Assembly: GCA_041478145.1 (NCBI GenBank)
Contig: JBGOVO010000001.1
Span: 5,702 to 69,701, forward strand
DNA from: Candidatus Methylomirabilia bacterium
GTDB lineage: Bacteria; Methylomirabilota; Methylomirabilia; Rokubacteriales; CSP1-6
Reading direction: 5' to 3'
DNA length: 64,000 nucleotides
Both the position numbers and the translations under genes were made by a program. The notes beneath the pieces are model-generated. The model did not search any database. It was not told the origin of the DNA and saw only the letters and a program-made list of their open reading frames with translations. The number at the start of each line of letters is the position of its first letter. Within the stretch, counting starts at the first letter, position 1. This document shows, piece by piece, positions 23,331 to 61,306 of the stretch.

Positions 23331-23333
23331 GAG

Positions 23334-42748: not shown

Positions 42749-43543
42749 TCAAGCGGGACAACCAGTGGCCCGGAAGTAGAGGGAATCGGTCAGGATCACC
42801 TTGACGCGAGGATCCCGGGTGAGCTCGCACAGCGTGCCGGGATCATTGACGGTGAACAGGTGGATCGGCACGCGCGCGAACACGAAACCCACCGACCTGT
42901 CATATTGCATGTAATCGAGTGATACGGCGGCAAAGCTCGCTGAGCGGAATCGCATGCCGGCCACGAGGAGATCGCGTACATGCGCCAGGCGGCCCGCCCG
43001 CGTCGGGGTGATCTGGAGCCAGAGGCTGGTTCGCATCCCTAGGCTGGCCACTGCGCCGAGTCTCCTCGGATCCACGGACTCGACGATCGCCCGGTCACGC
43101 ATTCGGGCGGTCTCGAGCTCGGTCCGCAGGCTATCGGTGGCGCGCTGCGCATCCGTGTCGGACAGCGTTCTCAGGTTCCAAAAGTCCAGCCAGACCAGGC
43201 CGTGTGGCGGCACGGCGGCGAGCATTTCGGTCAGATGCAGAACCGCGGGCAGCCTCGCCGCAACCGCCTCTTCCGAGATCACGTAGAGTCCATTCCGCCG
43301 GGCATCGTAGATCACGTCGATCTCGACACCAGGTGCCCCGAGGGCAAAGGCGCGTCGGAGCCCCTGCGGAGAGTTCTCCGGCGCGCCGTCCGAGAGGGCC
43401 CGGTGAGACCAGGCCTTGCTCGGGCCCTGGTAGAAGACCGGCACCGTCGGATTCGGCCGGAGAACGTAGACGAGCGCCCCACCGAAGGCCAGGGGCGCGA
43501 TGGCAGCTGAGATCAGAATCGACCGCGCGGACCTGACCCGCAA
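42749..43543 (-). CDS. glycerophosphodiester phosphodiesterase family protein (membrane-anchored)
   Basis: GP-PDE motif HRALSDGAPENSPQGLRRAFALGAPGVEIDV with an N-terminal TM anchor. Last gene of the minus-strand operon. Confidence 0.7.
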   Translation of the reverse strand: MRVRSARSILISAAIAPLAFGGALVYVLRPNPTVPVFYQGPSKAWSHRALSDGAPENSPQGLRRAFALGAPGVEIDVIYDARRNGLYVISEEAVAARLPAVLHLTEMLAAVPPHGLVWLDFWNLRTLSDTDAQRATDSLRTELETARMRDRAIVESVDPRRLGAVASLGMRTSLWLQITPTRAGRLAHVRDLLVAGMRFRSASFAAVSLDYMQYDRSVGFVFARVPIHLFTVNDPGTLCELTRDPRVKVILTDSLYFRATGCPA

Positions 43544-43574: not shown

Positions 43575-45461
43575 CTACGGGCGCGGCGGGCTAGAGGGCC
43601 GGGCCGGGCGCATCCGTGTCAGATTGACGGTTCGAACGACGGACGCTTCGTCGTCGACGTCACCGCTCACGAGCCCGGTCGTGTCGCCCGCGACCCGTAT
43701 CGTACCTTCCCGGCTCCCGCACTTGACGAAGATCAGGTCGCGGTCGTCGCCCCGCGCATGCATGATGCAGCGACCGGGCCTGGGCGGGTCGGCCAGGAAG
43801 GCACCCTCCTGCGGGCCCACGCAGTGCCGCTCGCCGAGCAGCGCCTCGATTGAGGCGCCGAAATCACGCTGTTGGAAGTGCTCGTCCAGCACTCGTGGCA
43901 GGGCGATGGCGCGGGTCACGATCACCCCCGGTATGCGCGTGACCGCGGATGCGCCGAAGCGAGCGAACTCGTCCTTCCGGAATGGCTCCATGGCCCGGTG
44001 GTCGCCGGTGATGAACAGCAGCCCGTTCTCGAAGAAGCGCGCGGCCATCAGTCGGTCGTAGAGCGCCCCGATTTGCGCGTCGGTCTCCCGGATCACCTGC
44101 TCCTCGCCGTGGAGCTGAGCGCCATCCGGAGTCATGAACGGGCGATGGCTCCAGTACGTCTGGATGACCGCGAAGTATGGTCGGCTCGCGGGCATCCCGC
44201 GGAGCTCCTCCAGCGCGACCGCGTAGAGCAGACGATCCGGCACCGAGTCGAAGGGCCCGCGCACGGTCTGTCCGTCGAACCGGGGATCGTCATGCCCGAC
44301 GAGCTTCTGGAAGCCCTGTGTCCGCAGCCACGTGTCCTGCCCGAGGAACCCCAGGTCTCCGCCCGCGATGAACTCGGTGCGGTAGCCCTGGTCCGACAGC
44401 ACCCGCGCGAGGGATCGCGAGGTATCCCCGAAGTCGGTGAGTCGCGGCGATCCCCACTTGTTGAACTCCGTCTTTTCCGGGACGAACGGAAACGTCCGCG
44501 TCAACAGCGAGATCAGCCCGCCGATCGTGGTCCACCCGTTGGCGTGGAAGTTGGTGAGCGACGTCTCCCGCTTCGCGATCTCATCGAGCCTCGGGGTCCA
44601 GTCCTCCACGCCCGAGAAGTATCTCGAGTGATACGCCGAGAGGCTCTCGACGATGAGGAGGATCACGTTGACGCGCCGCTGCCGGCTCAGGTGGCACGTC
44701 TCGGGCGGCGGGGGCGTCGCGAGTAGACTGGCGCGGAACGGGTCGGTGAAGTTGCTGTGGATGAAGAAGTTCGCGTTTCGCTCGAGGAAGTTCTCGAAGA
44801 GAGGCTTGTCACCGAACGAGTAGACATACCCTGGAATCGGAACGAAATGGAAGAACGTCAGCAGGAGGGCCGCAAAGACAAGAGACCGGCTCCGAAGAGG
44901 TTGGCGAGCCGGTCGGACGAAGAACAGGTAGCAGGTGTACAACGCCATCCAGACCACGACCCCGCCGACTGCGAGCTTGACGACGAGCTTCCAGGCCGGG
45001 ATGCCGAAGGCGATCAACCAGCCGGTGCGCAGCAAGGAAAAGATCGAACCAAGCTCCGCCGAGAAGGTGACGATGTCGCTGACGTAGAGGCGCGTGGCGA
45101 AGAAATAGTAGGCGAAGACGTCCGCGGTGTACAAGAGGACGATCGCGAGGCAGGTGACCATAGAAAGCCGGGACACGATGCCGGCGGCGCGGCTGGACGA
45201 GTGGCGCGCCACCGCCAGGGCCGCCGCGTAGAGGACCAGGAGCAGGGCGAGGATGGTCGCGTCGTGCTGGATGATGGCCAGGAGGATCCATCCGGTCGCG
45301 GCCGGTCGCATGAGCTTCACCTTGAAGAGGAGCGTCGCCATCACGAAGATCGCGAGGGCGAGCTCTGGACGGCGGACACGCAAGACAGAGAGGAGCCCCA
45401 CTTCATGGACAGTCGTGCGTTCCGTAGAGGGTTCGGAGGTCGCATCGCGCATCGGGTCCAT
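43575..45461 (-). CDS. LtaS/MdoB-like phosphoglycerol (or phosphoethanolamine) transferase, alkaline-phosphatase/sulfatase superfamily membrane protein
   Basis: Five N-terminal TM helices followed by a sulfatase-fold domain (NVILLIVESLSAYHSRYFSG ... FITGDHRAMEP). Confidence 0.7.
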   Translation of the reverse strand: MDPMRDATSEPSTERTTVHEVGLLSVLRVRRPELALAIFVMATLLFKVKLMRPAATGWILLAIIQHDATILALLLVLYAAALAVARHSSSRAAGIVSRLSMVTCLAIVLLYTADVFAYYFFATRLYVSDIVTFSAELGSIFSLLRTGWLIAFGIPAWKLVVKLAVGGVVVWMALYTCYLFFVRPARQPLRSRSLVFAALLLTFFHFVPIPGYVYSFGDKPLFENFLERNANFFIHSNFTDPFRASLLATPPPPETCHLSRQRRVNVILLIVESLSAYHSRYFSGVEDWTPRLDEIAKRETSLTNFHANGWTTIGGLISLLTRTFPFVPEKTEFNKWGSPRLTDFGDTSRSLARVLSDQGYRTEFIAGGDLGFLGQDTWLRTQGFQKLVGHDDPRFDGQTVRGPFDSVPDRLLYAVALEELRGMPASRPYFAVIQTYWSHRPFMTPDGAQLHGEEQVIRETDAQIGALYDRLMAARFFENGLLFITGDHRAMEPFRKDEFARFGASAVTRIPGVIVTRAIALPRVLDEHFQQRDFGASIEALLGERHCVGPQEGAFLADPPRPGRCIMHARGDDRDLIFVKCGSREGTIRVAGDTTGLVSGDVDDEASVVRTVNLTRMRPARPSSPPRP

Positions 45462-45479: not shown

Positions 45480-46421
45480 CTACTTCGGAAGAGCGGCTCG
45501 GCCGAAGATCGCGCTCAGCTCCGCGTGCAGCTCCTGGAGCAGCACGGTGCGTGCGCCGACTGCGCGTCGCGAGATCCGGCCGAGCAGCGCGAGCTTCTGT
45601 CGCGGGCTCAGGGGGCTGCGGCGGATCGCCCGCAGGTAGCCGGCGTAGTGCCGCCAGTAGTAGAACTGGGCGCGCCCCTTCTGTGTCGGCACCATGTAGG
45701 CGACCTTCTCTTCCAGCGACCCCAGGCCGCTGAAGGCCTCGCCGTGCATACGCCGGTAGAAGAGCCGCTCGTCGATCTCGTGGAATTGGCCATGCAGCGC
45801 GAGCTCCGCGACCAGCACCATGTCGGAGCCGAGGTAGCGCTCCATCAGCCCCGTCGTGATGAGCGCGTCCAGCCGCACCACGCCCTGCATCATGTTCACG
45901 AGGCCGAGCCGTCGGAGCACGGTCACGAAGCGCTCGCCCGGGTCCGGGTCCCGGACGTCCAGATCGTCGTCGTAGTCGCGGATCCGGCGGCCCTGCTCGT
46001 CGATCAGGGTCGTCCGGCCGAAGCAGGCGACCACCTCACAGTGAGCGTCCAGGACCCCGACACACTTCTCGACCAGGGTCAGGTCACACAGGTCGTCGGC
46101 ATTGGCGAGTTTGAAGTACGTGCCGGTCGAGAGGGTGATGACCCGGTTGAAGTTCCACGCCGAGCCGGCGTTGGTCTCGGCGCGATGGTAGCGGATGCGT
46201 GGGTCCATCGCCGCGTAGTCGCGGCAGATCTCGGGCGTCTCGTCGGTGGACGCGTTGTCGGAGATAACGATCTCGCTGTCCCGCCAGGTCTGGCCGACGA
46301 TGCAGTCGAGCGTCTCGCGGAGGAACGGCGCCCCGTTGAACACCGGGATCCCGATGCTCACCCGGGGACGCCGCTCCCGAGCCGCGTCAGCTGACATCCG
46401 GCGCCTCTCGCCTCCGCCCAC
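45480..46421 (-). CDS. glycosyltransferase family 2
   Basis: VSIGIPVFNGAPFLRETLDCIVGQT...VISDNASTDET: GT-A fold. Abuts the upstream stop codon. Confidence 0.75.
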   Translation of the reverse strand: MGGGERRRMSADAARERRPRVSIGIPVFNGAPFLRETLDCIVGQTWRDSEIVISDNASTDETPEICRDYAAMDPRIRYHRAETNAGSAWNFNRVITLSTGTYFKLANADDLCDLTLVEKCVGVLDAHCEVVACFGRTTLIDEQGRRIRDYDDDLDVRDPDPGERFVTVLRRLGLVNMMQGVVRLDALITTGLMERYLGSDMVLVAELALHGQFHEIDERLFYRRMHGEAFSGLGSLEEKVAYMVPTQKGRAQFYYWRHYAGYLRAIRRSPLSPRQKLALLGRISRRAVGARTVLLQELHAELSAIFGRAALPK

Positions 46422-47729
46422 CTAGTTACGCTGCCGCATGACCGGCTTCACCGGGCGGCCCAGCAGGTACTTGCCGATGCCTTCCTCGAGGGCCCGCCGG
46501 TACACGACGAGCGCCTCGCCCACGGCCTCCACCGTGCGATCGATGTCCTGGTCGGAGTGCGAGAAGCTCACCACCATGGACGGCATGATGAACCCGCGCT
46601 TCAGCATCTCCTGGAGGAACAACGTCCGGTGGGCCTGCGAGGGCTGCTTGTTCTCGTCGCGCGCCGCATAGACGAGGTTGCAAGGCATGCCGAGCACCTG
46701 GAAGTGCTCGGTCAAGCGGAGGCTGGCGATCACCTGCCCGAGTCCATCGCGCAGCCGCTGGCCCTGATGCCAGAGGTATTCGACGACCTTCTCCCGCTGG
46801 TAGATCCGCATGACCTCGATGGCGGCGGCCAGGCTGTGCGTCTCCGCGCCGTGCGTGGTGGAGAGCAGGAACACCCGGTCCCGGTCGTGCTGGAGACCGC
46901 CCAGGGCCATGATCTCCCGCTTGCCGACCATCGCCGAGACCGAGAAGCCGTTCCCCATCGCTTTCCCGAAGGAGGCCAAGTCGGGAACGACTCCGTAGTA
47001 CTCCTGGCCACCTCCCAGGTGCCAGCGGAAGCCGGTGATCATCTCGTCGAGCACGAACAGCGCCCCGTGCCGGGCGCACAGCCGCTGGACTTCGGTGAGG
47101 AAGCCGTCCACCGGCTCCATCGCGGTGGCCGGCTCGAGCATCACGCAGGCGATGCGCCCCGGGTACTGGGCGAACAGGGCCTCGATCCCCGCGCGATCGT
47201 TGTAGTGGAACTTCACGGTGAGCGCCTTCACCGCGTCCGGAATGCCCGCCGAGACCGGCGTGGTCCCGATGAACCAGTCCTCGACGGAGAAGAAGGGGTG
47301 CTCCGCGCAGACCGCCACCATGTCCCGGCCGGTGTAGGCGCGGGAGAGCTTCACCGCCGCCGTCGTCACGTCCGAGCCGTTCTTGGCGAACTTCACCATC
47401 TCGGCGCCGTGGATAAGCCCGAGGAGCTCCTCCGCGCATTCGAGCTCGATGGTCGCGGGGCGGGTGAAGTTGCTGCCGAGCAGCATTTGCCGCTGCGCCG
47501 CCTCGACCACCGGCCCGTAGGCGTGGCCGAGCGTCACCGCCCGGAGCCCCATGCCGTACTCGACGAGCTCGTTGCCGTCCGCGTCCCAGACGTGGCTGCC
47601 CGCTCCCCGCACGATGTAGGGCGCCGAGTGCTCGGGATACTGGTCGTCCCCCTTGGCGTAGGTGTGGCTGCCCCCGGGAATGACGGCGTGGAACCTCGAC
47701 TGCAACGCTTGCGATTTGGCGAAGTTCAT
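46422..47729 (-). CDS. class III PLP aminotransferase (glutamate-1-semialdehyde aminomutase-like)
   Basis: AVIPGGSHTY...YIVRGAGSHVWDADGNELVEYGMG...FVLDEMITGFRW...ASFGKAMGNGF: GSA-AM/AT-III signature including the PLP lysine. Confidence 0.8.
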   Translation of the reverse strand: MNFAKSQALQSRFHAVIPGGSHTYAKGDDQYPEHSAPYIVRGAGSHVWDADGNELVEYGMGLRAVTLGHAYGPVVEAAQRQMLLGSNFTRPATIELECAEELLGLIHGAEMVKFAKNGSDVTTAAVKLSRAYTGRDMVAVCAEHPFFSVEDWFIGTTPVSAGIPDAVKALTVKFHYNDRAGIEALFAQYPGRIACVMLEPATAMEPVDGFLTEVQRLCARHGALFVLDEMITGFRWHLGGGQEYYGVVPDLASFGKAMGNGFSVSAMVGKREIMALGGLQHDRDRVFLLSTTHGAETHSLAAAIEVMRIYQREKVVEYLWHQGQRLRDGLGQVIASLRLTEHFQVLGMPCNLVYAARDENKQPSQAHRTLFLQEMLKRGFIMPSMVVSFSHSDQDIDRTVEAVGEALVVYRRALEEGIGKYLLGRPVKPVMRQRN

Positions 47730-47748: not shown

Positions 47749-49095
47749 TCATGCGGTCGTGGTGCGCGGATGCTTCTCTCCGAACAGGGTGTCGAACTGC
47801 GACTCCAGCGCCCGCCGGCAGCGCCCGGCCTCCTCCTCGAGCCGGGCCGCGATCCGGGCTCGCGCGGACTCGAGCGCCTCGAAGCGCTCGGCGAGCGATC
47901 GGCTATCCAGGCCGGCCGCGGGCAGCAGGTAGGCGTCCTGGCCGGCCCGCTGCATCAGCTCGTCGATCTTGCTCTGGTACGATAGCCCCACCACCGGCTT
48001 GCGGAGCAGGAACGAGAGGAGGATGCCGTGGAACCTCCCGCTCACGACCAGGTCGAGCGTCGAGATCGTGGCCACGAGGTCGTCCACCGTTTCCACCGTC
48101 CGCTCCAGCACCCGCCCCGGCAGCCCCGGCCCGCGGGCGGCCAGCCGCGTCTTCAGGTCCGCGATCACGCGCGGGTCCGACCGCAGCTGCGTCGGGAAGA
48201 GCACCACCGAGTACCCGCGGGCGAGCAGCCACTCCGTGAAGCCCGCCAGGGTGTCCAGGTAGCCCTCGTACCGCGCGCGCTTCCCGCCCGGCCAGTACCG
48301 CGCGTCCTCGTGGGGAAACGGGTTGAGCCCGACCACCAGCGGCGCGCTCCCGGGCCGGGACGCGGCTTCCGCCTTCTCCACCCGCAGCGCCCACGCGGGA
48401 TCCGCATAGACCGCGCCCGCCACGCCGAGGGTCGCGATCAGCGCGCGCGAGCCCTCGTCGCGGAATGAGCGGTGGTCGCCGAGCCTCAGGGCGGCTCCGA
48501 CGAAGAGCCGGGCGAGGCGCGAGTCGAGCGGGCCCGCGCCCACGCTCACGAACAGCACCCGAGCCCCGGCCAGCCGCGCCATCACCGTCCACTTCAGGAC
48601 GAGGTACGGGAACGCCCACGTCCCGCCGAAATCGTCGGAGAGCTGGCCGCCGCCGCCCACCACGAGGCAATCGATCCCGCGCAGGGCCCTCACCGTCCGC
48701 GTGACGAAGGCCGCCTCCCCCACCAGACCCCGAGTTCCCGTCCAGAGGGCTCGCAGCCCACGCAGGAGCCGGCCCACGACCGGAGCGGCCCGCAGCCGCG
48801 CCTTGAGGCGGTCGAGAGCCGTGACCAGCCGGCCGCGCTGACTTGGGGCGGCGCTGACGACCTCGCGGCCGGATATCCTGGCGGCCTTCCGGGTCTGGCG
48901 CTGGGCGGGCAGCGCGATCACGCCGTGCCGGGCCTCCGTGTCCTCGGGGTCGAACGAGATCGCATAGAGCCGGGCCCCTTCACGCCGATCCCGGACCTGC
49001 TGCAGGATCGCCGCGAGCGTGGCTTCGTCCCCGAGGTTGCGGTTCCCGTAGTTGCTGAGGACCGCGATCGCCCCGACCCTGCCCCGGCGGTTCAC
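47749..49095 (-). CDS. polysaccharide pyruvyl transferase family protein (CsaB/WcaK-like)
   Basis: GNRNLGDEATLAAIL N-terminal motif and a C-terminal VVSGRFHGILLSF. Confidence 0.75.
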   Translation of the reverse strand: MNRRGRVGAIAVLSNYGNRNLGDEATLAAILQQVRDRREGARLYAISFDPEDTEARHGVIALPAQRQTRKAARISGREVVSAAPSQRGRLVTALDRLKARLRAAPVVGRLLRGLRALWTGTRGLVGEAAFVTRTVRALRGIDCLVVGGGGQLSDDFGGTWAFPYLVLKWTVMARLAGARVLFVSVGAGPLDSRLARLFVGAALRLGDHRSFRDEGSRALIATLGVAGAVYADPAWALRVEKAEAASRPGSAPLVVGLNPFPHEDARYWPGGKRARYEGYLDTLAGFTEWLLARGYSVVLFPTQLRSDPRVIADLKTRLAARGPGLPGRVLERTVETVDDLVATISTLDLVVSGRFHGILLSFLLRKPVVGLSYQSKIDELMQRAGQDAYLLPAAGLDSRSLAERFEALESARARIAARLEEEAGRCRRALESQFDTLFGEKHPRTTTA

Positions 49096-49102
49096 GAGCG
49101 CT

Positions 49103-49759
49103 TCAGCCCAGGATCAGCTTCCGGCCGTAGAAGCCTTCCGCGTATCCGTCCGGCGCGTTCGACTCCATGCCCCGCAACCTCAGGATCGCCTGGAAGGTCT
49201 CCTCCGAGAACCAGCGCCGGTCCGCCTGGCTCGGGAAGCTCCGGATGAGGTTCTCGATCTTGCGTCGGCAGAGAGCCCGGTCCAGGTGGACGAAGACGTT
49301 CGGCGACCCGAGGTCTCCGTCGAACTTGGGGATCTCGTACTCGAGGATCAGGTGGTCGCGAAAGGTATTCCACGTCAGCTCCGACACGAGCCGGTGGTCC
49401 TGGTGCAGGTCGGCGCGATAGTGCGTGAACACCATGTCCGGAGCCGCGATCTTCTTCAGCTCCTCGAAGGCCTCCTTGACCTCCGCGCCGTGGTACGGAA
49501 GGAACCCGTCGCGGAAGCTCTTGATCACGATGTGCTTTGCCTTCACGCCGGCCAGGATCGCCTCCGCGCTCGCGCGGGCCTCCCGGGCTCGCAGGTCGTT
49601 GGAGCTCCACACCACCCAGGTCACCGTCAGCCCCGGGTGCTCGTCCGCCAGCTTGGCGATCGTCCCGCCGCAGCCGATCTCGATGTCGTCGCAGTGAGCC
49701 CCCAGGCACAGGACGTGCCCGAGCCGCGGTTTCGTCCAGTCGAGTCCGATCGTGAGCAC
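49103..49759 (-). CDS. PIG-L/LmbE-family N-deacetylase
   Basis: VLCLGAHCDDIEIGCGGT and HQDHRLV zinc-binding motifs. Confidence 0.8.
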   Translation of the reverse strand: MLTIGLDWTKPRLGHVLCLGAHCDDIEIGCGGTIAKLADEHPGLTVTWVVWSSNDLRAREARASAEAILAGVKAKHIVIKSFRDGFLPYHGAEVKEAFEELKKIAAPDMVFTHYRADLHQDHRLVSELTWNTFRDHLILEYEIPKFDGDLGSPNVFVHLDRALCRRKIENLIRSFPSQADRRWFSEETFQAILRLRGMESNAPDGYAEGFYGRKLILG

Positions 49760-49771
49760 GCCGCCTCCCGC

Positions 49772-50644
49772 TCAGTCGGCGCGGCCGTCCAGCCGGCTCA
49801 TGACCTGCATCCGCTGCTCGTCGCCGTTGCCGTGGTGCGGGACCGGCTCCCCCGGAGCTCCCCTTCCGCCCGCCTTCCACACTTCCCACGGCCGCTCGCC
49901 CCGCGCGTGCATCTCGTCGAACAGCTGCTTGTCCTTCAGCGTGTCCATGCAGCCCCAGAAGCCCTCGTGCCGGTAGGCCATGAGCTGGTCACCCGCGATG
50001 AGCCGGTGGAACGGCTCCTGGACCAGCTCCTCGCCCTCGCGCATGTAGTCGAACACCTCGCGCCGGAACGCGAAGAACCCGCCGTTGATCCACAGCCCCG
50101 ACTTGGCCACGTGCTTGATGTCCTTCACGGCCCCTTCCGGGGAGAGCGAGACGAGATGGAAACTGTAGTTGGGCCGCACGCAGACAAAGCTGCCGACCTT
50201 GCCCTGGCTCAGGAAGTCGTCGAGATACCAGTCCAGCGGCAGGTCGGAGAGGCCGTCCGTATAGTTGGCGAGGAACACCTCCTCGCCGTCGAGGTACCGC
50301 TCCACCGCCTTGAGGCGCTGCCCGATGTTGGAGTGCTGTCCCGTGTCGGCGAACGTGATCGTCCAGTCCGCGATGTCACGCCCGTAGAGCCGTACGTCCT
50401 TGCCGCCCTTCGACAGCACGAAGTCGTTGGACAGGCACTCGTCGTAATTAAGGAAGTAATTCTTGACCATGTCGCCGCGGTATCCGAGGCAGAGAATGAA
50501 GTCGGTATGGCCGAAGTGGGCGTAGTACTTCATCACGTGCCAGATGATCGGCCGCGGCCCGATATTAACCATGGGCTTCGGGATGGTGTCGGAGTATTCC
50601 CGGAGCCGCGTCCCCAGTCCTCCGCAGAACAAGACGACCTTCAC
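49772..50644 (-). CDS. rfbF: glucose-1-phosphate cytidylyltransferase
   Basis: VKVVLFCGGLGTRLREYSDTIPKPMVNIGPRPIIWHVMKYY. A GTG at 50644 lies 6 nt downstream of GAGGGGG. The longer N-terminal extension in the track ORF overlaps the upstream gene in another frame and was rejected. Confidence 0.85.
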   Translation of the reverse strand: MKVVLFCGGLGTRLREYSDTIPKPMVNIGPRPIIWHVMKYYAHFGHTDFILCLGYRGDMVKNYFLNYDECLSNDFVLSKGGKDVRLYGRDIADWTITFADTGQHSNIGQRLKAVERYLDGEEVFLANYTDGLSDLPLDWYLDDFLSQGKVGSFVCVRPNYSFHLVSLSPEGAVKDIKHVAKSGLWINGGFFAFRREVFDYMREGEELVQEPFHRLIAGDQLMAYRHEGFWGCMDTLKDKQLFDEMHARGERPWEVWKAGGRGAPGEPVPHHGNGDEQRMQVMSRLDGRAD

Positions 50645-50693
50645 GATGGCCACCCCCTCTTCGCCCGGCAGGTGAAAGTTCCGATGCCGTCGG

Positions 50694-52010
50694 TCATTTC
50701 GCGAGCTCCTTGAGTAGGCCGTTGGCCTCGAGCAGATCGGCCGCTCGGCGGATCGCCCCCAGCTCGCGGTCCGAGCGCCGCGAGATGTCCAGCAGGGAGT
50801 GCTCCCCGTCGGACAGGTTGAGCACCCAGAGCAGGGCCAGCTCGTCCACCCCGTCCTGCGCGTAACCGCCCATCGACCGGTACAGGCCGCGCTTGCCGAG
50901 CTGCGGCTCACCCTTCGGGTTCTGGTTCAGGTAGCGCTGGTTGCCTTCGAGAGCGTCCAGGATCGCCAGGACCGTCTCGAGCGACTCCGCGAGCGACGCC
51001 GCCGAGACCAGGCCCGGGTTGTCGGCCGAGGTGTGGTACTCGGGGAAGCGTCCGTGCGGCGTGCGCATGAAGCAGCCGACCGGCAGGTTGAAGCCGGGCG
51101 AGCAGAACTGCCGCTCGTCGTACCCGTAGGGCGTGAACTCCTCAATCCGATGCGCGACACCCCGCTCCTGGAGCACGTGGGCGACCACGCGGTCCACCTC
51201 CGCGTCCCCGCGGCGACTCTTCTTGTAGGTGAAGGCCCCGCGGTCCCCCACGCACGCGAGCACGAGGCCGTGCTTGATCCGGTCCACCGTGGCCTCGTTG
51301 AGGGCCAGCCACGTGATAGAGCCGATGGTCCCTGGGATGAAGAGGAAGCGGTACGAGTACCGGAGCGCGCACTCGCGCAGCCGGCTGGCCAGCATCATCG
51401 CGAGCACGACACCCGAGAGGTTGTCGTTGGCGAGGGACGGATGGCAGACGTGGCAGGAGATCAGGACCTCATCCGACGTCGCTCCCGGCAGGTAGCACTC
51501 CCCGTAGGTGAGGGCGCCCGGCTCCAGGGTGGAGTCGATGCAGACCTCGTACTGGTCCTCGGGGAGGGTGGTCATCTGGCGGTGGCTGAGGCAGAACCCC
51601 CAGGTCTCGCGGTAGTACGACGTCCGGTACGGCACCCAGTCCGGCGCGGCCGGGAGGGTGTGCAGGTGGGGCACCAGCTCCTGCAGCGACATCCGCGCCC
51701 GGACAGGCGAGCTGTAGTTGACCACGTGAAGGTTCGAGCGACGGAAGTCGACCACCCGCTCTCCGCTCGAGCTGGCGATGTAGGCCTCCCGGATGTTCCA
51801 CTCCTTCGGCACTGCCCAGTCGAGCACCTGCGTTCCCGAAGGCACCTCGCGCAGCGCCAGCGGCGCGCGCTCGGCGACGTAGCGGAGCGTCTGCCGGAGC
51901 CCGTTGCCGGTGATGCTCCGGCACAGCGGGTAGAGGTCTTCCACGGCGCGGTACATGGCCGCGCCGGCCGCGCCCCGGTCGAGCCCCGCCCGCACGTCTG
52001 CGATCCGCAT
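50694..52010 (-). CDS. DUF4910/DUF2172-type aminopeptidase-like protein with C-terminal winged-helix region (polysaccharide-locus associated, function unknown)
   Basis: LYPLCRSITGNG N-terminal motif, an M28-like central fold, and a C-terminal wHTH-like tail. The start at MRIADV (ATG 52010) has a GAGG RBS and lies 10 nt after the RfbC-like stop. Confidence 0.55.
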   Translation of the reverse strand: MRIADVRAGLDRGAAGAAMYRAVEDLYPLCRSITGNGLRQTLRYVAERAPLALREVPSGTQVLDWAVPKEWNIREAYIASSSGERVVDFRRSNLHVVNYSSPVRARMSLQELVPHLHTLPAAPDWVPYRTSYYRETWGFCLSHRQMTTLPEDQYEVCIDSTLEPGALTYGECYLPGATSDEVLISCHVCHPSLANDNLSGVVLAMMLASRLRECALRYSYRFLFIPGTIGSITWLALNEATVDRIKHGLVLACVGDRGAFTYKKSRRGDAEVDRVVAHVLQERGVAHRIEEFTPYGYDERQFCSPGFNLPVGCFMRTPHGRFPEYHTSADNPGLVSAASLAESLETVLAILDALEGNQRYLNQNPKGEPQLGKRGLYRSMGGYAQDGVDELALLWVLNLSDGEHSLLDISRRSDRELGAIRRAADLLEANGLLKELAK

Positions 52011-52020
52011 GCCCGTCGCC

Positions 52021-52551
52021 TCAGGCCGGGAAGTCCGGATAGCTCCGGTCATGGTCGGAGATGGTCCGCTCGGCATCCGGCCACCGGATGCCGAAGACCG
52101 GATCGTCCCACCTCACCCCACGGGCGTGATCCGGCGCGTAGAACTCGGACATCTGATAGAAAACCTCGGTCTCGTCCTCGAGCGTCTGGAAACCGTGCGC
52201 GACGCCCTCAGGCACGTAGAGCATGCGGCGGCTGTCCGCGTCGAGCACCACCGCCTCGTGACGCCGGAAGGCCGGCGAGTCGGGGCGGAGGTCGATGATC
52301 ACGTCATGAATCGCTCCGCGCGTGCACCGGATGAGCTTGGCCTCCCGGTGTGGCACCGCCTGGTAGTGCATGCCGCGGAGGGTGCCCCGGCACTTGTTGA
52401 AGGACACGTTGCACTGCACGAGGCGGGGGTTGAGCCCCCGCTCCTGGAAGTCGCGCTCGCACCAGCTCCGCGCGAAGAAGCCCCGCGCGTCCTCGAGCCG
52501 CTCGAGGTCCACGATCCACGCGCCCGGGAGCGCGGTCTCGGTGAAGATCAC
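52021..52551 (-). CDS. NDP-4-keto-6-deoxyhexose 3,5-epimerase, cupin fold (RfbC-like)
   Basis: 176 aa covering only the C-terminal third of the 655-aa track ORF (the rest is off-frame junk). Motifs RGFFARSW, RGMHYQ and GVAHGFQTLED. GTG start overlaps the methyltransferase stop (GTGA). Confidence 0.8.
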   Translation of the reverse strand: MIFTETALPGAWIVDLERLEDARGFFARSWCERDFQERGLNPRLVQCNVSFNKCRGTLRGMHYQAVPHREAKLIRCTRGAIHDVIIDLRPDSPAFRRHEAVVLDADSRRMLYVPEGVAHGFQTLEDETEVFYQMSEFYAPDHARGVRWDDPVFGIRWPDAERTISDHDRSYPDFPA

Positions 52552-53786
52552 CGCACGACCTCGAGCCGCGGGATCGGGATCACGAACTGGCCGCCCCAGG
52601 TCCGGATCTCGACCATCTGCGCCATGATCTCGTCCTTGAGGTTCCAGGGCAGGATCAGGACGTAGTCCGGGCGCGTCTCCTTGATCTTCTCGGGATGGAA
52701 GATGGGGATGTGGGTGCCCGGCAGGAAGCGTCCGTGCTTGTAGGGGTTCCGGTCCACCGTGTAGTCGAGGAAGTCGGTCCGGATGCCGCAATAGTTGAGG
52801 AGCGTGTTGCCCTTGCCCGGCGCCCCGTACCCGACGATGGTCTTTCCTTCCCGCTTGGCCGCGATCAGGAACTCGAGGAGCCGGCGCTTGGTCTCCTGCA
52901 CCTGCTCGGTGAAGCGCGCGTACTTCTCGAGGCGGTCCAGGCTGGCCGCCCGCTCGCGGGCCAGGAGCTTCTCGACCCGGGGACCCCCCGGCCGCGACTC
53001 GTCCTCGGCGTGGCGCGCATAGATCCGCAGGGAGCCGCCGTGGGTCCAGAGCTCCTCGACGTCGAACAGGGTCAGGCCGTGCTTGGCGAAGATCCGCTCG
53101 ACGGTCAGGAAGGAGAAGTAGGAGAAATGCTCGTGGTAGATCGTGTCGAACTGGTTCTCGTCCATCAGGCGCAGGAGGTGGGGGAACTCCATGGTGATCA
53201 CGCCCTGCGGCTTCAGCAGCATCTTCATACCGGCCACGAAGCCGTTCAGGTCGGTGACCTGCGCCAGCACGTTGTTGCCGATGATCAGGTCGGCCCGGCC
53301 CCGCTCGGCCAGGAGCGCACCGGCCGTCTCCAGCCCGAACAGGCGGGTGGTGGTGGGCACGCCCTGCTTCACCGCCGCCGCCGCCACATTCGCGGCGGGC
53401 TCCACCCCGAGCACCGGGATGCTCTTCGCCACGAAGTTCCGCAGCAGGTAGCCGTCGTTGCTGCCCAGCTCCACCACGTAGCTGCCGGATCCGAGCTGGA
53501 GCCGGGAGGTGATCATATCCACGTAGGACTTTGCGTGCTCGAGCCACGCCGTCGAGAAGGAAGAGAAATATGCGTACTCGCTGAAGATCCGCTCCGGTCC
53601 GACGTACTCTTCCACCTGGACCAGGAAGCACCGCCCGCAGACATAGGCGTGCAGTGGGTAGAACGGCTCCATCTGGTTCACCTGCTCGCGGGTGAGGAAG
53701 CTTTCGCACAGCGGCGACATCCCCAGGTCCACGAAGGTGTGGTGGAGGCTCGCGCCGCAGAACCGGCATCCGGCCATGGTGGTCAT
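52548..53786 (-). CDS. SAM-dependent sugar C-methyltransferase with N-terminal zinc ribbon (TylCIII/NovU-like)
   Basis: Zinc ribbon CRFCGASL...CGRC, a class I methyltransferase core (VVELGSNDGYLL), and the C-terminal domain typical of NDP-hexose C-methyltransferases. Confidence 0.75.
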   Translation of the reverse strand: MTTMAGCRFCGASLHHTFVDLGMSPLCESFLTREQVNQMEPFYPLHAYVCGRCFLVQVEEYVGPERIFSEYAYFSSFSTAWLEHAKSYVDMITSRLQLGSGSYVVELGSNDGYLLRNFVAKSIPVLGVEPAANVAAAAVKQGVPTTTRLFGLETAGALLAERGRADLIIGNNVLAQVTDLNGFVAGMKMLLKPQGVITMEFPHLLRLMDENQFDTIYHEHFSYFSFLTVERIFAKHGLTLFDVEELWTHGGSLRIYARHAEDESRPGGPRVEKLLARERAASLDRLEKYARFTEQVQETKRRLLEFLIAAKREGKTIVGYGAPGKGNTLLNYCGIRTDFLDYTVDRNPYKHGRFLPGTHIPIFHPEKIKETRPDYVLILPWNLKDEIMAQMVEIRTWGGQFVIPIPRLEVVR

Positions 53787-53825
53787 CGCTCCTCTGACGG
53801 GTATGGGTGCGTGGGCGCGCTCGCG

Positions 53826-54857
53826 CTAGACGCGAACCCACCTCAGGTCGCGGTCCAGCCGTCCCTGGTCGAGCAGGTGCTTGATCTGGGTGAGGCGGAT
53901 GAATCGGCGCCCCTGGAACTCGGCCAGCGTCACGTCCGCGTCCTGGAGCGCGTCGTAGAGGTCCTTGGCGCCGAACGAGGCGTTCCACTGTGGCCGGAAA
54001 TCGGGGAGCGTCCGCGTCAGCTTCGAGAAGTCCACGCGGTAGCTGCGGGGGTCCGGGCCGGCACCTTCCGCGTACTCCACCGTGCAGCCCGCGACGGTGG
54101 CCCGCACGATCTCGGCCAGCTCGCGCACCTGATAGTTCTCGCCGTTCGCGCCCACGTTGAAGGCCTGGTTGTGGATGGCTTCGCGCGGCGCGGCCAGCGC
54201 GGCTGCGAACGCGCGCGAGATGTCCTGGACGTGCACGATGGGACGCCAGGGCGTTCCGTCACTCATGATGCGGATGCGGCCCGTCGTGTGTGCCCAGCAC
54301 ACGAGGTTGTTGAGTACGACGTCGGCCCGGAGCCGCGGGGATACGCCGTAGGCCGTGGCGTTCCGCATGAACACCGGGCTGAAGGAGCTGTCGGCGAGCT
54401 TGGCGACGTCTTCCTCGGTTCGCACCTTGGAGACCGCGTAGGCGGTGAGCGGTCGCAGCGGAGCGTCCTCGGTGAGCAGGTCGTCGGCGCCCGCCGCGCC
54501 GTACATGCTGCACGACGAGGCGTACAGGTAGCGCTTCACTCCCGCCTCGCGGGCGAGCCGGGCCAGGTCCACCGACGCCCGGTGGTTGATGTCGTGCGTC
54601 CACTCTGGATGCAGGTCCCCGAGAGGGTCGTTGCAGAGCGCGGCCAAGTGGGCCACGGCATCGAAGCCCTCCAGGTCGGACGATCGGATGTCCCGGATAT
54701 CCTTGCGGAGCACGGCGATGCGCTCGCTGCCATCCCTGAGGGTGCAGTCCTCGAAGAAGAACGTATCCAGCCCAACCACGTCGTGACCGGCCGCCTGCAG
54801 CACGGGAAGCATGACCGACCCGATGTAGCCGTTGTGCCCAGTCAGAAGAACGCGCAT
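53826..54857 (-). CDS. NAD-dependent epimerase/dehydratase (SDR; candidate CDP-hexose 4,6-dehydratase or 4-ketoreductase)
   Basis: MRVLLTGHNGYIGSVMLPVL Rossmann motif and a YAVSK catalytic dyad. First gene of the minus-strand operon. Confidence 0.8.
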   Translation of the reverse strand: MRVLLTGHNGYIGSVMLPVLQAAGHDVVGLDTFFFEDCTLRDGSERIAVLRKDIRDIRSSDLEGFDAVAHLAALCNDPLGDLHPEWTHDINHRASVDLARLAREAGVKRYLYASSCSMYGAAGADDLLTEDAPLRPLTAYAVSKVRTEEDVAKLADSSFSPVFMRNATAYGVSPRLRADVVLNNLVCWAHTTGRIRIMSDGTPWRPIVHVQDISRAFAAALAAPREAIHNQAFNVGANGENYQVRELAEIVRATVAGCTVEYAEGAGPDPRSYRVDFSKLTRTLPDFRPQWNASFGAKDLYDALQDADVTLAEFQGRRFIRLTQIKHLLDQGRLDRDLRWVRV

Positions 54858-54927: not shown

Positions 54928-54942
54928 GCAAACAAAGTGCCA
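54928..54942 (-). promoter_or_regulatory. sigma-54 (-24/-12) promoter for the minus-strand decoration operon
   Basis: The plus strand reads GCAAACAAAGTGCCA, so the minus strand reads TGGCAC-TTTGT-TTGCT, a perfect GG-N10-GC consensus. It lies about 70 nt upstream of the first operon gene, whose start is at 54857. Confidence 0.55.
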
Positions 54943-55158: not shown

Positions 55159-56397
55159 TCATGGTTGGGGACTCAACTGAATCGGGCCGCTGGGTCGCTC
55201 GACCGCTCCGAGCGTCGGCGGGTTCCCGCGCTTCGAGCCGAAGAAGTCATCCGCGACCACGTCCTCACCGCGCACCCCCCCCAGCCCCTGCAGCAGGGAG
55301 CCCGGAGCCGGTGAGAAATCGAGGGCGTCGGGGTTCACAAAGCACGCTGCCCAGGTGCAGTCGACGTTGCCGCCCAGCCGCACGCCTACCCGAGGCCTGG
55401 GCAGGGCCGGGGTGCCGGACCGCACGTGCGCGGCGTTGTTGAGGATGCGCGCCAGCAGCAGTCCGGACTCGGGCGCGGTGATCCCACCCTGCCCGTTGTT
55501 GTAGACCGTGTTGTGGATCAGCGTGATGGCCCGGAGGAGTCCCCGCTGCTGATAGTTCTCCAGACCGATCCCTGCTTCCGCATTCCACCCGGAGATGTTG
55601 TTCCGGACGACGGCTGGGCCTCCCCCCACGACGATGCCCGACGAGGTGCGCGAGCCTCGCACGAAGTTGCGCTCGATCACGCTAACGAGCGTGATGTCGC
55701 GCGACCCGAAGACCATGATACCCGGGCCCTTCGTGCCCACGATGCGGTTGTCGCGAATCACCCCCGCCGAGTTCAGCTTCACCTCGAGCCCGTAGCCCAC
55801 CTCCTCGGGCACCGCCGTCACGCCGTGGATGTAGTTGCCCTCCACGAGCAGTCCGCTGACGGCGCACGCGGTACCATTGTGGCAGCCGAAGTACATGCCG
55901 GTAGAGCCGGAATCCACGATCACGTTGCCGCGAACCGTGAGGCCCTGCACACTCGCGTGGGTCGAGGCGATCGCGATCCCTCCCAGCTCGGAGAAACGGC
56001 AGTCTTCCACGGTGATGCGGTTGCCCGACATGATCCGCACTCCATCCGCTTCTCCGCGGGCCGCCCAGAAGTCGAGGCCCCGGATCGTGATATCGCTGGC
56101 GCGGATCTCGAGAAGATTGACCGGCTGGCCCGGATACACGAGTCGTGCCCGGTGGTCGGGATCCACCGACCGGATGACGAGCGGGCGTCCCGACTCTCCT
56201 CCGCGCCGCAGCTTGCAGCCTCCTCGATAGTCGCCCGGCCGGAGGACGAGCTCCTCGCCTGGCGGCAGCGCCCGGATGGCGGCACACAGATCCGACTCCG
56301 GACCGATCTCGAGCGCCCGCGCCGCGGCGGGGACGAGGCCGCCGGCCAGCAGGGCTGCCAAAGCGATGCCGGCGCCATCCATCAGTCGTGTCAACAC
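55159..56397 (-). CDS. secreted right-handed parallel beta-helix repeat protein (pectate-lyase fold; candidate polysaccharide lyase/depolymerase or C5-epimerase-like)
   Basis: Signal peptide MLTRLMDGAGIALAALLAGGLVPAAARA. Repeated beta-helix rungs (ITIRGLDFWA, ITVEDCRFSE, VQGLTVRGNVIVDS, LLVEGNYIHG, IRDNRIVG, VVRNNISG). Confidence 0.65.
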   Translation of the reverse strand: MLTRLMDGAGIALAALLAGGLVPAAARALEIGPESDLCAAIRALPPGEELVLRPGDYRGGCKLRRGGESGRPLVIRSVDPDHRARLVYPGQPVNLLEIRASDITIRGLDFWAARGEADGVRIMSGNRITVEDCRFSELGGIAIASTHASVQGLTVRGNVIVDSGSTGMYFGCHNGTACAVSGLLVEGNYIHGVTAVPEEVGYGLEVKLNSAGVIRDNRIVGTKGPGIMVFGSRDITLVSVIERNFVRGSRTSSGIVVGGGPAVVRNNISGWNAEAGIGLENYQQRGLLRAITLIHNTVYNNGQGGITAPESGLLLARILNNAAHVRSGTPALPRPRVGVRLGGNVDCTWAACFVNPDALDFSPAPGSLLQGLGGVRGEDVVADDFFGSKRGNPPTLGAVERPSGPIQLSPQP

Positions 56398-56490
56398 AGC
56401 ACCTCCTATGCGCTTGTCCGCTCCTGATCGTATACGCTAGACTCCCGTCGACGCCAATGTATAAGCCGAACACGCCTTGCCGGCTCCGCC

Positions 56491-56940: not shown

Positions 56941-56990
56941 GATGAGGCCAGAAGTCGGCTAACATCCCCCCAGCCCGGAGGAGGTAGGGC

Positions 56991-58230: not shown

Positions 58231-58245
58231 ATGGCACCTCCTTTG
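58231..58245 (+). promoter_or_regulatory. sigma-54 (-24/-12) promoter upstream of the enhancer-binding-protein operon
   Basis: TGGCAC-CTCCT-TTGCT is a perfect GG-N10-GC consensus, about 80 nt upstream of ATG 58325. Confidence 0.55.
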
Positions 58246-58324
58246 CTCTTCGTAACCACGCCAACGCGTATGGTCGGGATTTCACACGAGGGCTCATCTG
58301 AACCCCTGGACGAAAGATGACGCA

Positions 58325-61299: not shown

Positions 61300-61306
61300 G
61301 CGCCCC

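Follow-up and report, generated by a model that had tools for sequence, protein, structure and literature searches.

Can a C-methyl-branched nucleotide sugar be made by a gene cluster that carries only one short-chain dehydrogenase/reductase (SDR) beside its other sugar genes and no recognizable 4,6-dehydratase? This question is raised by a cluster on the minus strand of contig JBGOVO010000001.1 of a Candidatus Methylomirabilia bacterium (assembly GCA_041478145.1), of which we analyzed a stretch of 64,000 nucleotides (positions 5,702 to 69,701), hereafter called the window. Genes for an SDR, a sugar C-methyltransferase, an RmlC-like epimerase, a zinc protein of the DUF4910 family, and an RfbF-like nucleotidyltransferase lie side by side here, and an initial annotation had left the lone SDR to serve as 4,6-dehydratase and/or 4-ketoreductase. 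The comparisons described below point to a different arrangement, in which the cluster would make a C-methyl-branched nucleotide hexose for exopolysaccharide through a C4-dehydrogenase route. Our confidence in this composite pathway is evenly balanced, and its parts are graded separately where they are discussed.

A conserved cassette within a single operon

The genes on which the argument turns are as follows (NDP, nucleoside diphosphate).

53826..54857, minus strand: extended SDR, 343 aa (Pfam Epimerase, 147 bits), proposed to be a Cj1427-type NDP-hexose C4-dehydrogenase
52548..53786, minus strand: TylC3/TcaB9-type S-adenosylmethionine (SAM)-dependent sugar C-methyltransferase, 412 aa (Methyltransf_13/23/14)
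52021..52551, minus strand: RmlC-like cupin, putative NDP-4-keto-sugar 3,5-epimerase, 176 aa (dTDP_sugar_isom, 215 bits)
50694..52010, minus strand: DUF4910/DUF2172/HTH_47 protein, 438 aa, M28-like single-zinc, CA_C2195/Cj1295 family
49772..50653, minus strand: RfbF-like nucleotidyltransferase, 293 aa (TIGR02623, 219.7 bits against a cut-off of 300.25)
49103..49759, minus strand: PIG-L/LmbE-family zinc deacetylase, 218 aa (Pfam PIG-L, 62 bits)
46422..47729, minus strand: class III (PRK06209 family) aminotransferase, 435 aa (Aminotran_3, 119 bits; NF004856, 720 against 486)

The domains listed in the initial annotation are all present in these minus-strand frames with strong Pfam and NCBIfam profile matches, including the profiles it had named for checking (Methyltransf_13/14, dTDP_sugar_isom, and DUF4910), and a third-position GC of 87-93% in the cassette frames, within a window of ~65-72% G+C, supports them as real coding frames. 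Gene lengths were taken from the public gene calls on the same contig (JGI metagenome 3300052991), with which genes and lengths agree; most of the reading-frame extents given earlier could be kept, the exceptions being the DUF4910 frame (drawn as 460 aa to 52076, 438 aa in the public record) and the RfbF frame (379 aa, 293 in the public record). Together, the genes belong to a minus-strand operon of 11 genes running from 54857 to 42749, of which the SDR-to-RfbF genes form the front part. The stop codon of the C-methyltransferase overlaps the start of the RmlC gene (GTGA), and the remaining gaps measure 0-40 bp. It is supported that the genes are contiguous and co-oriented and behave as a single sugar-nucleotide pathway, as had been assumed, and the same set recurs in 60-72 of 84 related loci.

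These related loci were found by scanning a collection in which each species is represented by one genome; two conserved peptides of DUF4910 served as queries and matched at least 600 stretches. Eighty loci from more than 10 phyla were fetched, each anchored on DUF4910 and with its open reading frames (ORFs) called mechanically; they come from Cyanobacteria, Acidobacteriota, Nitrospirota, Planctomycetota (including Brocadia), Verrucomicrobiota, and Chloroflexota, as well as Beta- and Gammaproteobacteria, Actinomycetota, Gemmatimonadota, and Zixibacteria. When 84 loci, short contigs among them, were searched by tblastn with the window proteins, DUF4910 was accompanied by the C-methyltransferase in 72, an RfbF-type transferase in 70, RmlC in 66, the SDR in 61, PIG-L in 48, and the aminotransferase in 14. 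Nearly every partner lies on the strand of DUF4910, and the RmlC gene is immediately upstream of it in 46 of 61 loci. The cassette is conserved widely and is not peculiar to this genome. Clustering of all neighboring ORFs added further recurrent partners, namely a classical short-chain dehydrogenase (adh, 30 loci), a second extended SDR (SDR2, 13 loci), an uncharacterized protein of ~310 aa (14 loci), a further nucleotidyltransferase-like protein (9 loci), and an L-2-hydroxyglutarate oxidase (7 loci).

Two observations on the make-up of these loci may be added. Filamentous cyanobacteria carry a reduced cassette (L006, L007, L019, L023, L054, and L071) of C-methyltransferase, RfbF-like transferase, PIG-L, and DUF4910, with no SDR or RmlC within 9 kb; either these two functions are encoded elsewhere in the genome, or the four genes are a unit of their own. 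The ~310-aa protein (L008, L012, L033, L055, L060, L061, L065, and others; for example, L033:9061-9993) often adjoins a class III aminotransferase. It has no Pfam or NCBIfam match and is not found in the window, and it shows an H-x-D…H pattern recalling Fe(II)/2-oxoglutarate oxygenases.

Proposed origin of the keto group

The roles first considered for the single SDR, those of 4,6-dehydratase and 4-ketoreductase, did not withstand closer comparison. The protein reaches no NCBIfam cut-off and so none for a 4,6-dehydratase (TIGR01181, 42 bits against 365; TIGR02622 not among the matches listed). It carries the motifs SSCSMYG (residue 114) and YAVSK (residue 140), and across its orthologs SSCSxYG and YxxxK, which make up a Ser/Tyr/Lys triad, are invariant (60 of 60); in the same 60 sequences, SSCS replaces the acid/base residues of the dehydratases (TDE in RmlB, SDK in RfbG). 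On its motif and score cut-offs, a 4,6-dehydratase was rejected.

The best match of the SDR in the PDB is 6VO6 (115 bits), which we take to be the Campylobacter jejuni enzyme Cj1427, and a profile built from 20 members of the SDR family scores 170.6 bits against 6VO6 versus 106 for the next structure. Cj1427 oxidizes GDP-heptose at C4 with no dehydration; NADH stays tightly bound to the enzyme, which follows a ping-pong mechanism in which alpha-ketoglutarate recycles it and is converted to L-2-hydroxyglutarate (PMC10680097).

The distribution of the true dehydratase agrees with a keto-forming role. RfbG, the cytidine diphosphate (CDP)-glucose 4,6-dehydratase, was searched for by tblastn with two true RfbGs over 87 loci and the window, and the window was also covered by Pfam/NCBIfam SDR scans and by reading of its long ORFs; RfbG was not found in 85 of the 87 loci, and none of these approaches gave a CDP-glucose 4,6-dehydratase in the window. 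The absence that had looked like a local oddity is the usual condition of these loci. Only L021 and L042 carry RfbG (TIGR02622, 493 and 481 bits), both with the motif TSDKCY, and both are without the window-type SDR. Because the loci with RfbG are exactly those without the SDR, the two enzymes look like interchangeable makers of a 4-keto sugar.

A further indication comes from the by-product expected of a Cj1427-type reaction. In seven loci from five lineages (L026, L032, L041, L048, L062, L070, and L084), a gene for an L-2-hydroxyglutarate oxidase, matching NF008726 in all seven cases, lies beside or within the cassette. A separate reductase is present in 7/7 of these loci versus 35/75 others (Fisher P = 0.007, with phylogeny ignored), as expected if alpha-ketoglutarate is used stoichiometrically only where another enzyme reduces the ketone. 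An oxidase of this kind embedded in a nucleotide-sugar cassette is unusual, and it may be a marker of alpha-ketoglutarate-dependent ping-pong SDRs in general.

On these grounds, we consider it rather probable that the SDR is the keto-forming enzyme of the pathway. Its motifs and relatives make 4,6-dehydration or terminal 4-keto reduction an unlikely role, and by analogy with Cj1427 it is proposed to act as a C4-dehydrogenase using alpha-ketoglutarate.

Proposed fate of the keto group

A ketone formed at C4 would have to be consumed, and no homolog of adh or SDR2, the dedicated reductases of other loci, was found in the window. Candidate sinks were compared in the 42 loci that have full flanks and both the SDR and the C-methyltransferase. 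In these loci, adh is the only sink in 14, the aminotransferase in 9, and SDR2 in 7, adh and SDR2 occur together in 1, and no sink was recognized in 11. Orthologs of the window aminotransferase (61-67% identity) occur in 13 related loci, in 10 of which the SDR is also present, and adh or SDR2 is found in 0/13 of the aminotransferase loci versus 42/83 loci (hypergeometric P = 3e-5, with ancestry ignored). The exclusion also holds within the window-type variant alone (P = 1.4e-4). Thus, adh, SDR2, and the aminotransferase appear to be three mutually exclusive consumers of the 4-keto group, and, read most simply, the pattern means that one keto group is reduced in some loci and transaminated in others. 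If so, no second SDR is needed here because the aminotransferase takes the ketone.

The aminotransferase is not HemL (TIGR00713, 207.7 bits against a cut-off of 527.3), and a PDB search with it returned generic relatives only. Its earlier inclusion in the pathway, together with that of DUF4910, is strengthened by the 13 loci in which the two co-occur and by a natural fusion, P0251, in which DUF4910 is joined to a PRK06209-family aminotransferase (662 bits). Context and fusion argue for a role in sugar synthesis; that this role is specifically the removal of the ketone we rate slightly short of an even chance.

Putative enzymes of nucleotide activation, methylation, and epimerization

The first enzyme of the pathway had been annotated as RfbF, and the part of this call that stands is kinship to the glucose-1-phosphate cytidylyltransferases. 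The protein scores 187 bits against PDB 1TZF and keeps the nucleoside triphosphate motifs GGLGTRL (residue 11) and PKPMV (residue 25), with G10, G11, G13, R15, and K25 conserved in canonical RfbFs and window-type paralogs alike. What does not stand is equivalence: the protein falls below the family cut-off, and the segments R162-F-G164 and F176-x-E178-K179-P180 (1TZF numbering), invariant in canonical RfbF, are lost. The window protein has S-F-H and D-I-K-H-V at these sites, which are variable or replaced across 46 window-type paralogs. Judged from its sequence, this "RfbF" is a divergent paralog of glucose-1-phosphate cytidylyltransferase rather than a confirmed equivalent.

The related loci fall into two variants in this respect. 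In variant A, comprising the window and 49 loci, the RfbF-like protein scores ~220 bits with TIGR02623, is 54-69% identical to the window protein, and is paired with PIG-L in 44 of 49 loci. In variant B (20 loci from Nitrospira, Brocadia, Sulfurifustis, and others), RfbF is 35-47% identical to the window protein, the two examples examined score as canonical (389 and 370 bits, cut-off 300.25), and PIG-L is present in 1 of 20. PIG-L is the constant partner of the RfbF-like gene; its best PDB relatives, BshB and LmbE-related GlcNAc deacetylases, are generic only. One related locus is informative about the product, since in L042 the RfbF-like paralog occurs together with a bona fide CDP-glucose 4,6-dehydratase, for which reason the product is probably a CDP-hexose.

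As separate observations on this gene, a metagenome-assembled genome of Verrucomicrobiae (L074) carries a canonical RfbF (370 bits) and an RfbF-like/PIG-L pair (223 bits) in one cassette, and given this locus the two transferases may not be simple functional equivalents. The window protein also ends in a low-complexity tail of ~30 residues (49772-49870, minus strand; …GRGAPGEPVPHHGNGDEQRMQVMSRLDGRAD) that is absent from the 257-268-aa orthologs at other loci.

The C-methyltransferase is assigned with less ambiguity. It matches Methyltransf_13 (zinc-binding, 90.6 bits against a cut-off of 31.3), Methyltransf_23 (57.9 bits), and Methyltransf_14 (238 bits), and in the PDB it matches 4RV9, a D-mycarose 3-C-methyltransferase (308 bits), KijD1 (249 bits), and TcaB9 (227 bits), with full-length alignments to 4RV9, 5T64, and 3NDI. 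The four cysteines of the zinc site are in place (CRFC at residue 7, CGRC at residue 50), and YHEH at residues 217-220 aligns with YDEH of TcaB9 and YHEH of 4RV9; we take this to be the catalytic Tyr-x-Glu-His, presumably Y222/E224/H225 in TcaB9. The residue aligned to TcaB9 His181 is Gln. From these matches, the enzyme most likely methylates the carbon beside the ketone, C3. The RmlC-like cupin passes TIGR01221 (169.5 bits against 155.75), reaches up to 143 bits against RmlC structures in the PDB, and has the motifs GMHYQ (residue 60), KLIRC (residue 72), and FYQ (residue 131). For both proteins, the matches establish family membership only and are silent on the nucleotide accepted.

The DUF4910 protein

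The protein encoded between RmlC and RfbF, whose closest relatives belong to Rokubacteria/Methylomirabilota, is made up of DUF4910 (374 bits in Pfam), an inserted DUF2172 (138 bits), and a C-terminal HTH_47 (87 bits), and over residues 14-434 it matches CA_C2195 (PDB 3K9T, family PIRSF015244) with 494 bits. In CA_C2195, a single zinc is bound by His189/Asp195/His324, and Ser191 and Pro225 replace the catalytic Asp/Glu of M28 peptidases (PMC4000134). The corresponding zinc-ligand motifs of the window protein are CHPSLANDN (residue 189; H190, S192, and D196) and YHTSADN (residue 325; H326), with P226 in FIPGT. H190, D196, P226, and H326 are invariant in ~93 aligned DUF4910 sequences, and S192 falls outside the invariant list. 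An M28 co-catalytic aminopeptidase was rejected, as the Pfam score is marginal (21.9 against 21.3) and the catalytic residues are replaced. Across contexts 59 residues are invariant, and a division into subfamilies by RfbF variant or flagellin context was likewise rejected (2 fixed differences, 56-63% identity throughout). The family comprises 5,247 representatives at 50% clustering, 1,281 of them below 1e-30.

The presence of DUF4910 genes in sugar loci has been described before. Das et al. (2014) linked the family to sugar clusters and proposed a non-peptidase role in the synthesis of modified polysaccharides (PMC4000134), Hitchen et al. (2010) reported that Cj1295 is required for 5-N-(di-O-methylglyceroyl) pseudaminic acid and that its loss leaves N5-acetyl (PMC3068675), and a paper of 2026 still treats the family as a putative transferase. 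In flagellin nonulosonic-acid islands, DUF4910 homologs stand behind genes for an acyl carrier protein (ACP) and then an AAC(3)-type N-acyltransferase; a short-chain dehydrogenase beside DUF4910 in such an island proved not to be orthologous to the cassette adh. The 2014 paper spoke merely of "some gene fusions" (PMC4000134). We find DUF4910 fused to at least seven classes of enzyme, namely class III aminotransferase, AAC(3)-type N-acyltransferase, GNAT, formyltransferase, AMP-ligase, SAM methyltransferase, and UDP-glucose dehydrogenase (P0242, P0243, P0251, P0259, P0273, P0323, P0341, P0358, P0363, P0366, P0172, P0175, and P0230).

These fusions point to a single-zinc, hydrolase-like protein acting on the same nucleotide sugar at or around the keto/amino stage, and they point to chemistry at the sugar amino or N-acyl group, for which deacylation is the simplest idea. 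Several other ideas found no support: removal of S-adenosylhomocysteine, hydrolysis of the CDP-sugar followed by re-activation by a second nucleotidyltransferase, and a zinc-dependent retro-aldol C2-epimerase or ketol rearrangement. A 5,6-dehydratase is contradicted by the persistence of DUF4910 in the RfbG loci.

Proposed pathway and competing explanations

We propose the following route from what the computations show, namely the domains of the proteins, the conservation of the cassette, the complementarity of SDR and RfbG, the linkage to the oxidase, the exclusivity of the sinks, and the fusions. The RfbF-like transferase would make an NDP-hexose, probably a CDP-hexose, and the SDR would oxidize C4 with the 6-hydroxyl kept, passing the hydride to alpha-ketoglutarate and so giving L-2-hydroxyglutarate by analogy with Cj1427. 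The TylC3-type enzyme would then methylate C3 beside the ketone, and the RmlC-like cupin would epimerize C5 and possibly, prior to methylation, C3. The DUF4910 step would take place on the same nucleotide sugar around the keto/amino stage. Finally, the PRK06209-family aminotransferase would take the ketone to give a 4-amino-4-deoxy-3-C-methyl-hexose, a position filled elsewhere by the classical SDR or the second extended SDR, and the downstream genes would use the sugar, the family 2 glycosyltransferase transferring it into exopolysaccharide. It is speculation that alpha-ketoglutarate formed from the glutamate of the aminotransferase feeds the SDR step.

A number of points weigh against this scheme. 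(i) Every step is read from homology and gene context, and the co-occurrence statistics ignore shared ancestry. (ii) On the side of the SDR, identity to 6VO6 is only 30%, the identification of that structure as Cj1427 is presumptive (the deposited molecule name fits), and no L-2-hydroxyglutarate oxidase was found in the window. (iii) On the side of the sinks, the 11 of 42 complete loci without a recognizable sink nearby leave room for an SDR that also re-reduces the sugar, we know of no precedent for a class III aminotransferase acting on NDP-4-keto sugars, and the enzyme could act at another position of the sugar. (iv) Loss of the E-K-P sugar-phosphate loop makes the substrate of the RfbF-like transferase uncertain, and the scheme has no role for PIG-L. 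(v) DUF4910 is equally conserved in loci with canonical RfbF, without aminotransferase, and with no evident amine, and because it is conserved there a purely amide-directed role is disfavored. The wider formulation, in which the cassette leads to undescribed 3-C-methyl hexoses that retain the 6-hydroxyl (4-amino or 4-hydroxy depending on the sink) through a ping-pong C4-dehydrogenase, for use in the surface polysaccharides of more than 10 phyla, with a DUF4910 step without known enzyme family, is put forward only tentatively, as less likely than not.

Among the alternatives, the first concerns DUF4910, which might be a specific N-deacylase for group exchange, as proposed for Cj1295, so that the sugar would then be an N-acylated amino sugar. 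The His/Asp/His single-zinc site, in which the M28 Asp/Glu are replaced (PMC4000134), resembles that of metal-dependent deacetylases, and the N5-acetyl left in place of N5-di-O-methylglyceroyl on loss of Cj1295, the repeated fusions to AAC(3)-type, GNAT, and formyl transferases and to AMP-ligase, and the gene order ACP, N-acyltransferase, DUF4910 in nonulosonic-acid islands all fit such a reaction. However, most cassette loci are without an aminotransferase or N-acyltransferase (a search for a hidden amide source gave DegT in 3 loci and an AAC(3)-type N-acyltransferase in none), variant B combines DUF4910 with a canonical glucose-1-phosphate cytidylyltransferase and no apparent amide, and variant A already has a deacetylase in PIG-L. 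With 2 fixed differences between contexts, a context-specific substrate is also hard to argue, and on balance we regard the N-deacylase as unlikely.

A second alternative would keep the SDR as the terminal 4-ketoreductase: RfbF would make CDP-glucose, a dehydratase encoded elsewhere would convert it to CDP-4-keto-6-deoxyglucose for modification by the C-methyltransferase and RmlC, and the product would be a 6-deoxy-3-C-methyl-hexose of the cereose type. CDP-cereose and CDP-cillose pathways exist (PMC7725333), RfbG does lie beside the same C-methyltransferase, RmlC, and DUF4910 genes in two loci, and the GalE-type extended SDRs include many 4-ketoreductases. Against this stand the lack of RfbG in the window and in 85/87 loci, and its restriction to loci without the SDR, which fits the same role better than consecutive roles. 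A further reductase, as found in 22 of the 42 complete loci, would be redundant, and where SDR and aminotransferase occur together (10 of 13 loci) they would compete for one ketone. The linkage to L-2-hydroxyglutarate oxidase would be left unexplained, and the SDR has a dehydrogenase, not a reductase, as its closest relative of known structure. We find the cereose-type route improbable.

A third possibility is redox-neutral: the SDR would oxidize C4, hold the NADH, and re-reduce the modified sugar to a 3-C-methyl-hexose, while the aminotransferase acts elsewhere, on a C6 aldehyde or a non-sugar substrate. In aminoglycoside pathways, C6' aldehydes are substrates of class III aminotransferases, and the complete loci with SDR and C-methyltransferase but no separate sink (11/42) would be accounted for, as would the confinement of the L-2-hydroxyglutarate oxidase to loci with a separate reductase (7/7). 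The tight NADH binding and ping-pong mechanism of Cj1427 would permit such a cycle (PMC10680097). Yet the exclusion between the aminotransferase and adh/SDR2 (P = 3e-5) suggests one shared ketone, the window shows no evident C6 oxidase, and a released 4-keto intermediate that returns to the same enzyme has no example among the relatives, making this cycle decidedly improbable. Very unlikely, finally, is a DUF4910 that serves as scaffold or regulator through its C-terminal winged helix rather than as a pathway enzyme: the fusions to at least six classes of sugar-modifying enzyme and the want of an obvious catalytic base (PMC4000134) would suit it, but the zinc ligands are among the 59 residues invariant across contexts, a pattern typical of active sites. 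In addition, the structure paper considers the winged helix, which is circularly permuted, to serve in protein contacts and not in DNA binding, and the Cj1295 knockout has a specific chemical phenotype.

Relation to known systems

The Bacillus cereus operon for CDP-linked C-methyl sugars reportedly consists of RfbF, a CDP-glucose 4,6-dehydratase, a methyltransferase, and a 4-reductase and gives 6-deoxy products. The study of B. cereus (Li et al. 2017, J Biol Chem 292:7636) is cited in PMC10050317 and PMC7725333, the latter of which names CDP-cereose and CDP-cillose as known pathways; a CDP-linked C-methyl sugar, which the initial annotation had considered unusual, therefore has precedent. Like the B. 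cereus system, the C4-dehydrogenase route proposed here would combine an RfbF-type transferase with a TylC3-type C-methyltransferase acting on a 4-keto intermediate. Unlike it, the window has no dehydratase and no dedicated reductase, and it has a Cj1427-like SDR, an RmlC-like epimerase, DUF4910, PIG-L, and a class III aminotransferase. The second point of reference is the GDP-heptose pathway of C. jejuni, which runs through the C4-dehydrogenase Cj1427, the C3/C5-epimerase Cj1430, and the C4-reductase Cj1428 (PMC10680097). Shared features would be C4 oxidation with the 6-hydroxyl kept, RmlC-like epimerization, and subsequent consumption of the ketone, and the oxidase found in the relatives matches the by-product of Cj1427. 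In contrast, that pathway handles GDP-heptose and is without C-methyltransferase, DUF4910, or aminotransferase. The proposed pathway would work like a hybrid of the CDP-cereose and Cj1427/Cj1430 systems and is a member of neither.

The individual enzymes compare in a similar manner. With TylC3, TcaB9, and KijD1 (4RV9, 3NDI, and 5T64; 227-308 bits), the C-methyltransferase shares three domains, four zinc cysteines, and Y-x-E-H, but those enzymes act on thymidine diphosphate-linked 4-keto-2,6- or 2,3,6-deoxy sugars in secondary metabolism, whereas the window enzyme is encoded together with an RfbF-type transferase in an operon for polysaccharide. The DUF4910 protein shares with CA_C2195 and Cj1295 the same three domains, zinc ligands, Ser/Pro replacements, and sugar-modifying neighbors; those homologs lie beside genes for ACP, N-acyltransferase, and NeuB-type proteins, whereas here and in ~70 loci the neighbors are RmlC, the C-methyltransferase, the SDR, and an RfbF-type transferase, a cassette that the 2014 paper on the family did not resolve (PMC4000134). 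A literature search for this combination of genes returned nothing relevant.

As to the possible product, CDP-vinelose (CDP-6-deoxy-3-C-methyl-2-O-methyl-L-talose) of Azotobacter vinelandii is a CDP-linked hexose with a methyl branch at C-3. To our knowledge, biosynthetic genes have been assigned neither to vinelose nor to 3-C-methyl-D-mannose (Man3CMe). The latter, found in the Helicobacter pylori O-antigen, keeps its 6-hydroxyl (PMC9912281) and is the known example of 3-C-methyl hexoses that do so, a group described as very rare. Man3CMe resembles the product proposed here in its C-3 methyl branch and retained 6-hydroxyl, and no structural data tie it or vinelose to the cassette. The parts of the cassette belong to known families, but the reachable literature offers no explanation for their conserved grouping, for a route without dehydratase, or for the orphan zinc enzyme.

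Transcription and genomic setting

Beyond the cassette, the remaining genes of the operon and the elements that may govern it are the following.

47749..49095, minus strand: polysaccharide pyruvyl transferase-like protein, 448 aa (PS_pyruv_trans, 117 bits; CsaB TIGR03609, 131 against 213)
45480..46397, minus strand: family 2 glycosyltransferase, 305 aa (Glycos_transf_2, 96 bits)
43575..45461, minus strand: membrane sulfatase-fold protein of the phosphoglycerol-transferase/lipoteichoic acid-synthase type, 628 aa (Pfam Sulfatase, 77 bits)
42749..43543, minus strand: last operon gene, 264 aa, no Pfam or NCBIfam match, called in the public record
54928..54942, minus strand: sigma-54-type -24/-12 promoter element, TGGCACtttgtTTGC, ~70 bp upstream of the SDR start codon
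58325-59719: sigma-54 activator gene, 3.5 kb from the operon, with its own sigma-54 site upstream

The pyruvyl transferase-like gene occurs in only 6 of 84 related loci and is specific to this locus, and the sulfatase-fold protein, which weakly matches phosphoglycerol transferase I, and the 264-aa protein are not conserved in the related loci; these last two may attach a substituent other than a sugar to the polymer.

An exact match to the sigma-54 consensus TGGCAC-N5-TTGC lies in the gap of 300 bp on the upstream side of the SDR gene. There are three exact matches in the window versus 0.07 expected (23248-23262, plus strand; 54928-54942, minus strand; 58232-58246, plus strand), all of them intergenic and facing downstream genes; these are, in the same order, a gene at 23331 for a small secreted protein, the sugar operon, and the gene of the sigma-54 activator. 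A sigma-54 activator with its own sigma-54 site suggests autoregulation, and the operon is probably transcribed from the predicted sigma-54 promoter under this activator of the exopolysaccharide locus. A scan for sigma-70 promoters and terminators gave nothing above chance.

The surroundings form an XrtA/PEP-CTERM exopolysaccharide locus, with a chain-length determinant (TIGR03007, 291 bits against a cut-off of 279), a PEP-CTERM-associated ATPase, asparagine-synthetase-like amidotransferases, and glycosyltransferases. In positions 1-36000 and 58325-64000, the translations alone suggest three asparagine-synthetase-like amidotransferases and FemAB-like proteins, an ACP with an acyl-CoA ligase and a pyridoxal phosphate-dependent decarboxylase, and GlmS, two sugar dehydrogenases, and a Bac_transf priming transferase. 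A second extended SDR (2299-3297, plus strand) has LegB/GalE-like scores, all under cut-off, and seemingly has Phe in place of the catalytic Tyr of YxxxK (…SLFAASK…), which may reflect either an unusual active site or an artifact of the alignment. Between the operon and the sigma-54 regulator (55159-57650) lie three genes, for a secreted right-handed beta-helix (NosD/pectate-lyase-like) protein, a small GGDEF-domain protein (public gene call), and an SCO4226-like protein with a coiled-coil tail, which hint at polysaccharide control linked to cyclic di-GMP.

Implications

Sugars with a C-methyl branch are rare, and most of those known come from antibiotics. If the reading given here is correct, such sugars would be widespread components of the envelope and exopolysaccharide in Cyanobacteria, Acidobacteriota, Nitrospira, anammox bacteria, Verrucomicrobia, and others, and the alpha-ketoglutarate-dependent C4-dehydrogenase route would extend from the heptoses of Campylobacter to hexoses, which would explain the near-absence of the 4,6-dehydratase from these clusters (RfbG in 2/87 loci). 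Two likely mis-annotations are also flagged, "glucose-1-phosphate cytidylyltransferase" for the RfbF-like protein and "glutamate-1-semialdehyde aminomutase" for the aminotransferase. Furthermore, the five or six soluble enzymes of the cassette offer a reconstitutable system for assigning the reaction of DUF4910. If the reading holds, this would provide a reaction for an orphan family that comprises over 5,000 sequence clusters, Cj1295 included, and whose members also shape the flagellin glycans of C. jejuni and Clostridium.

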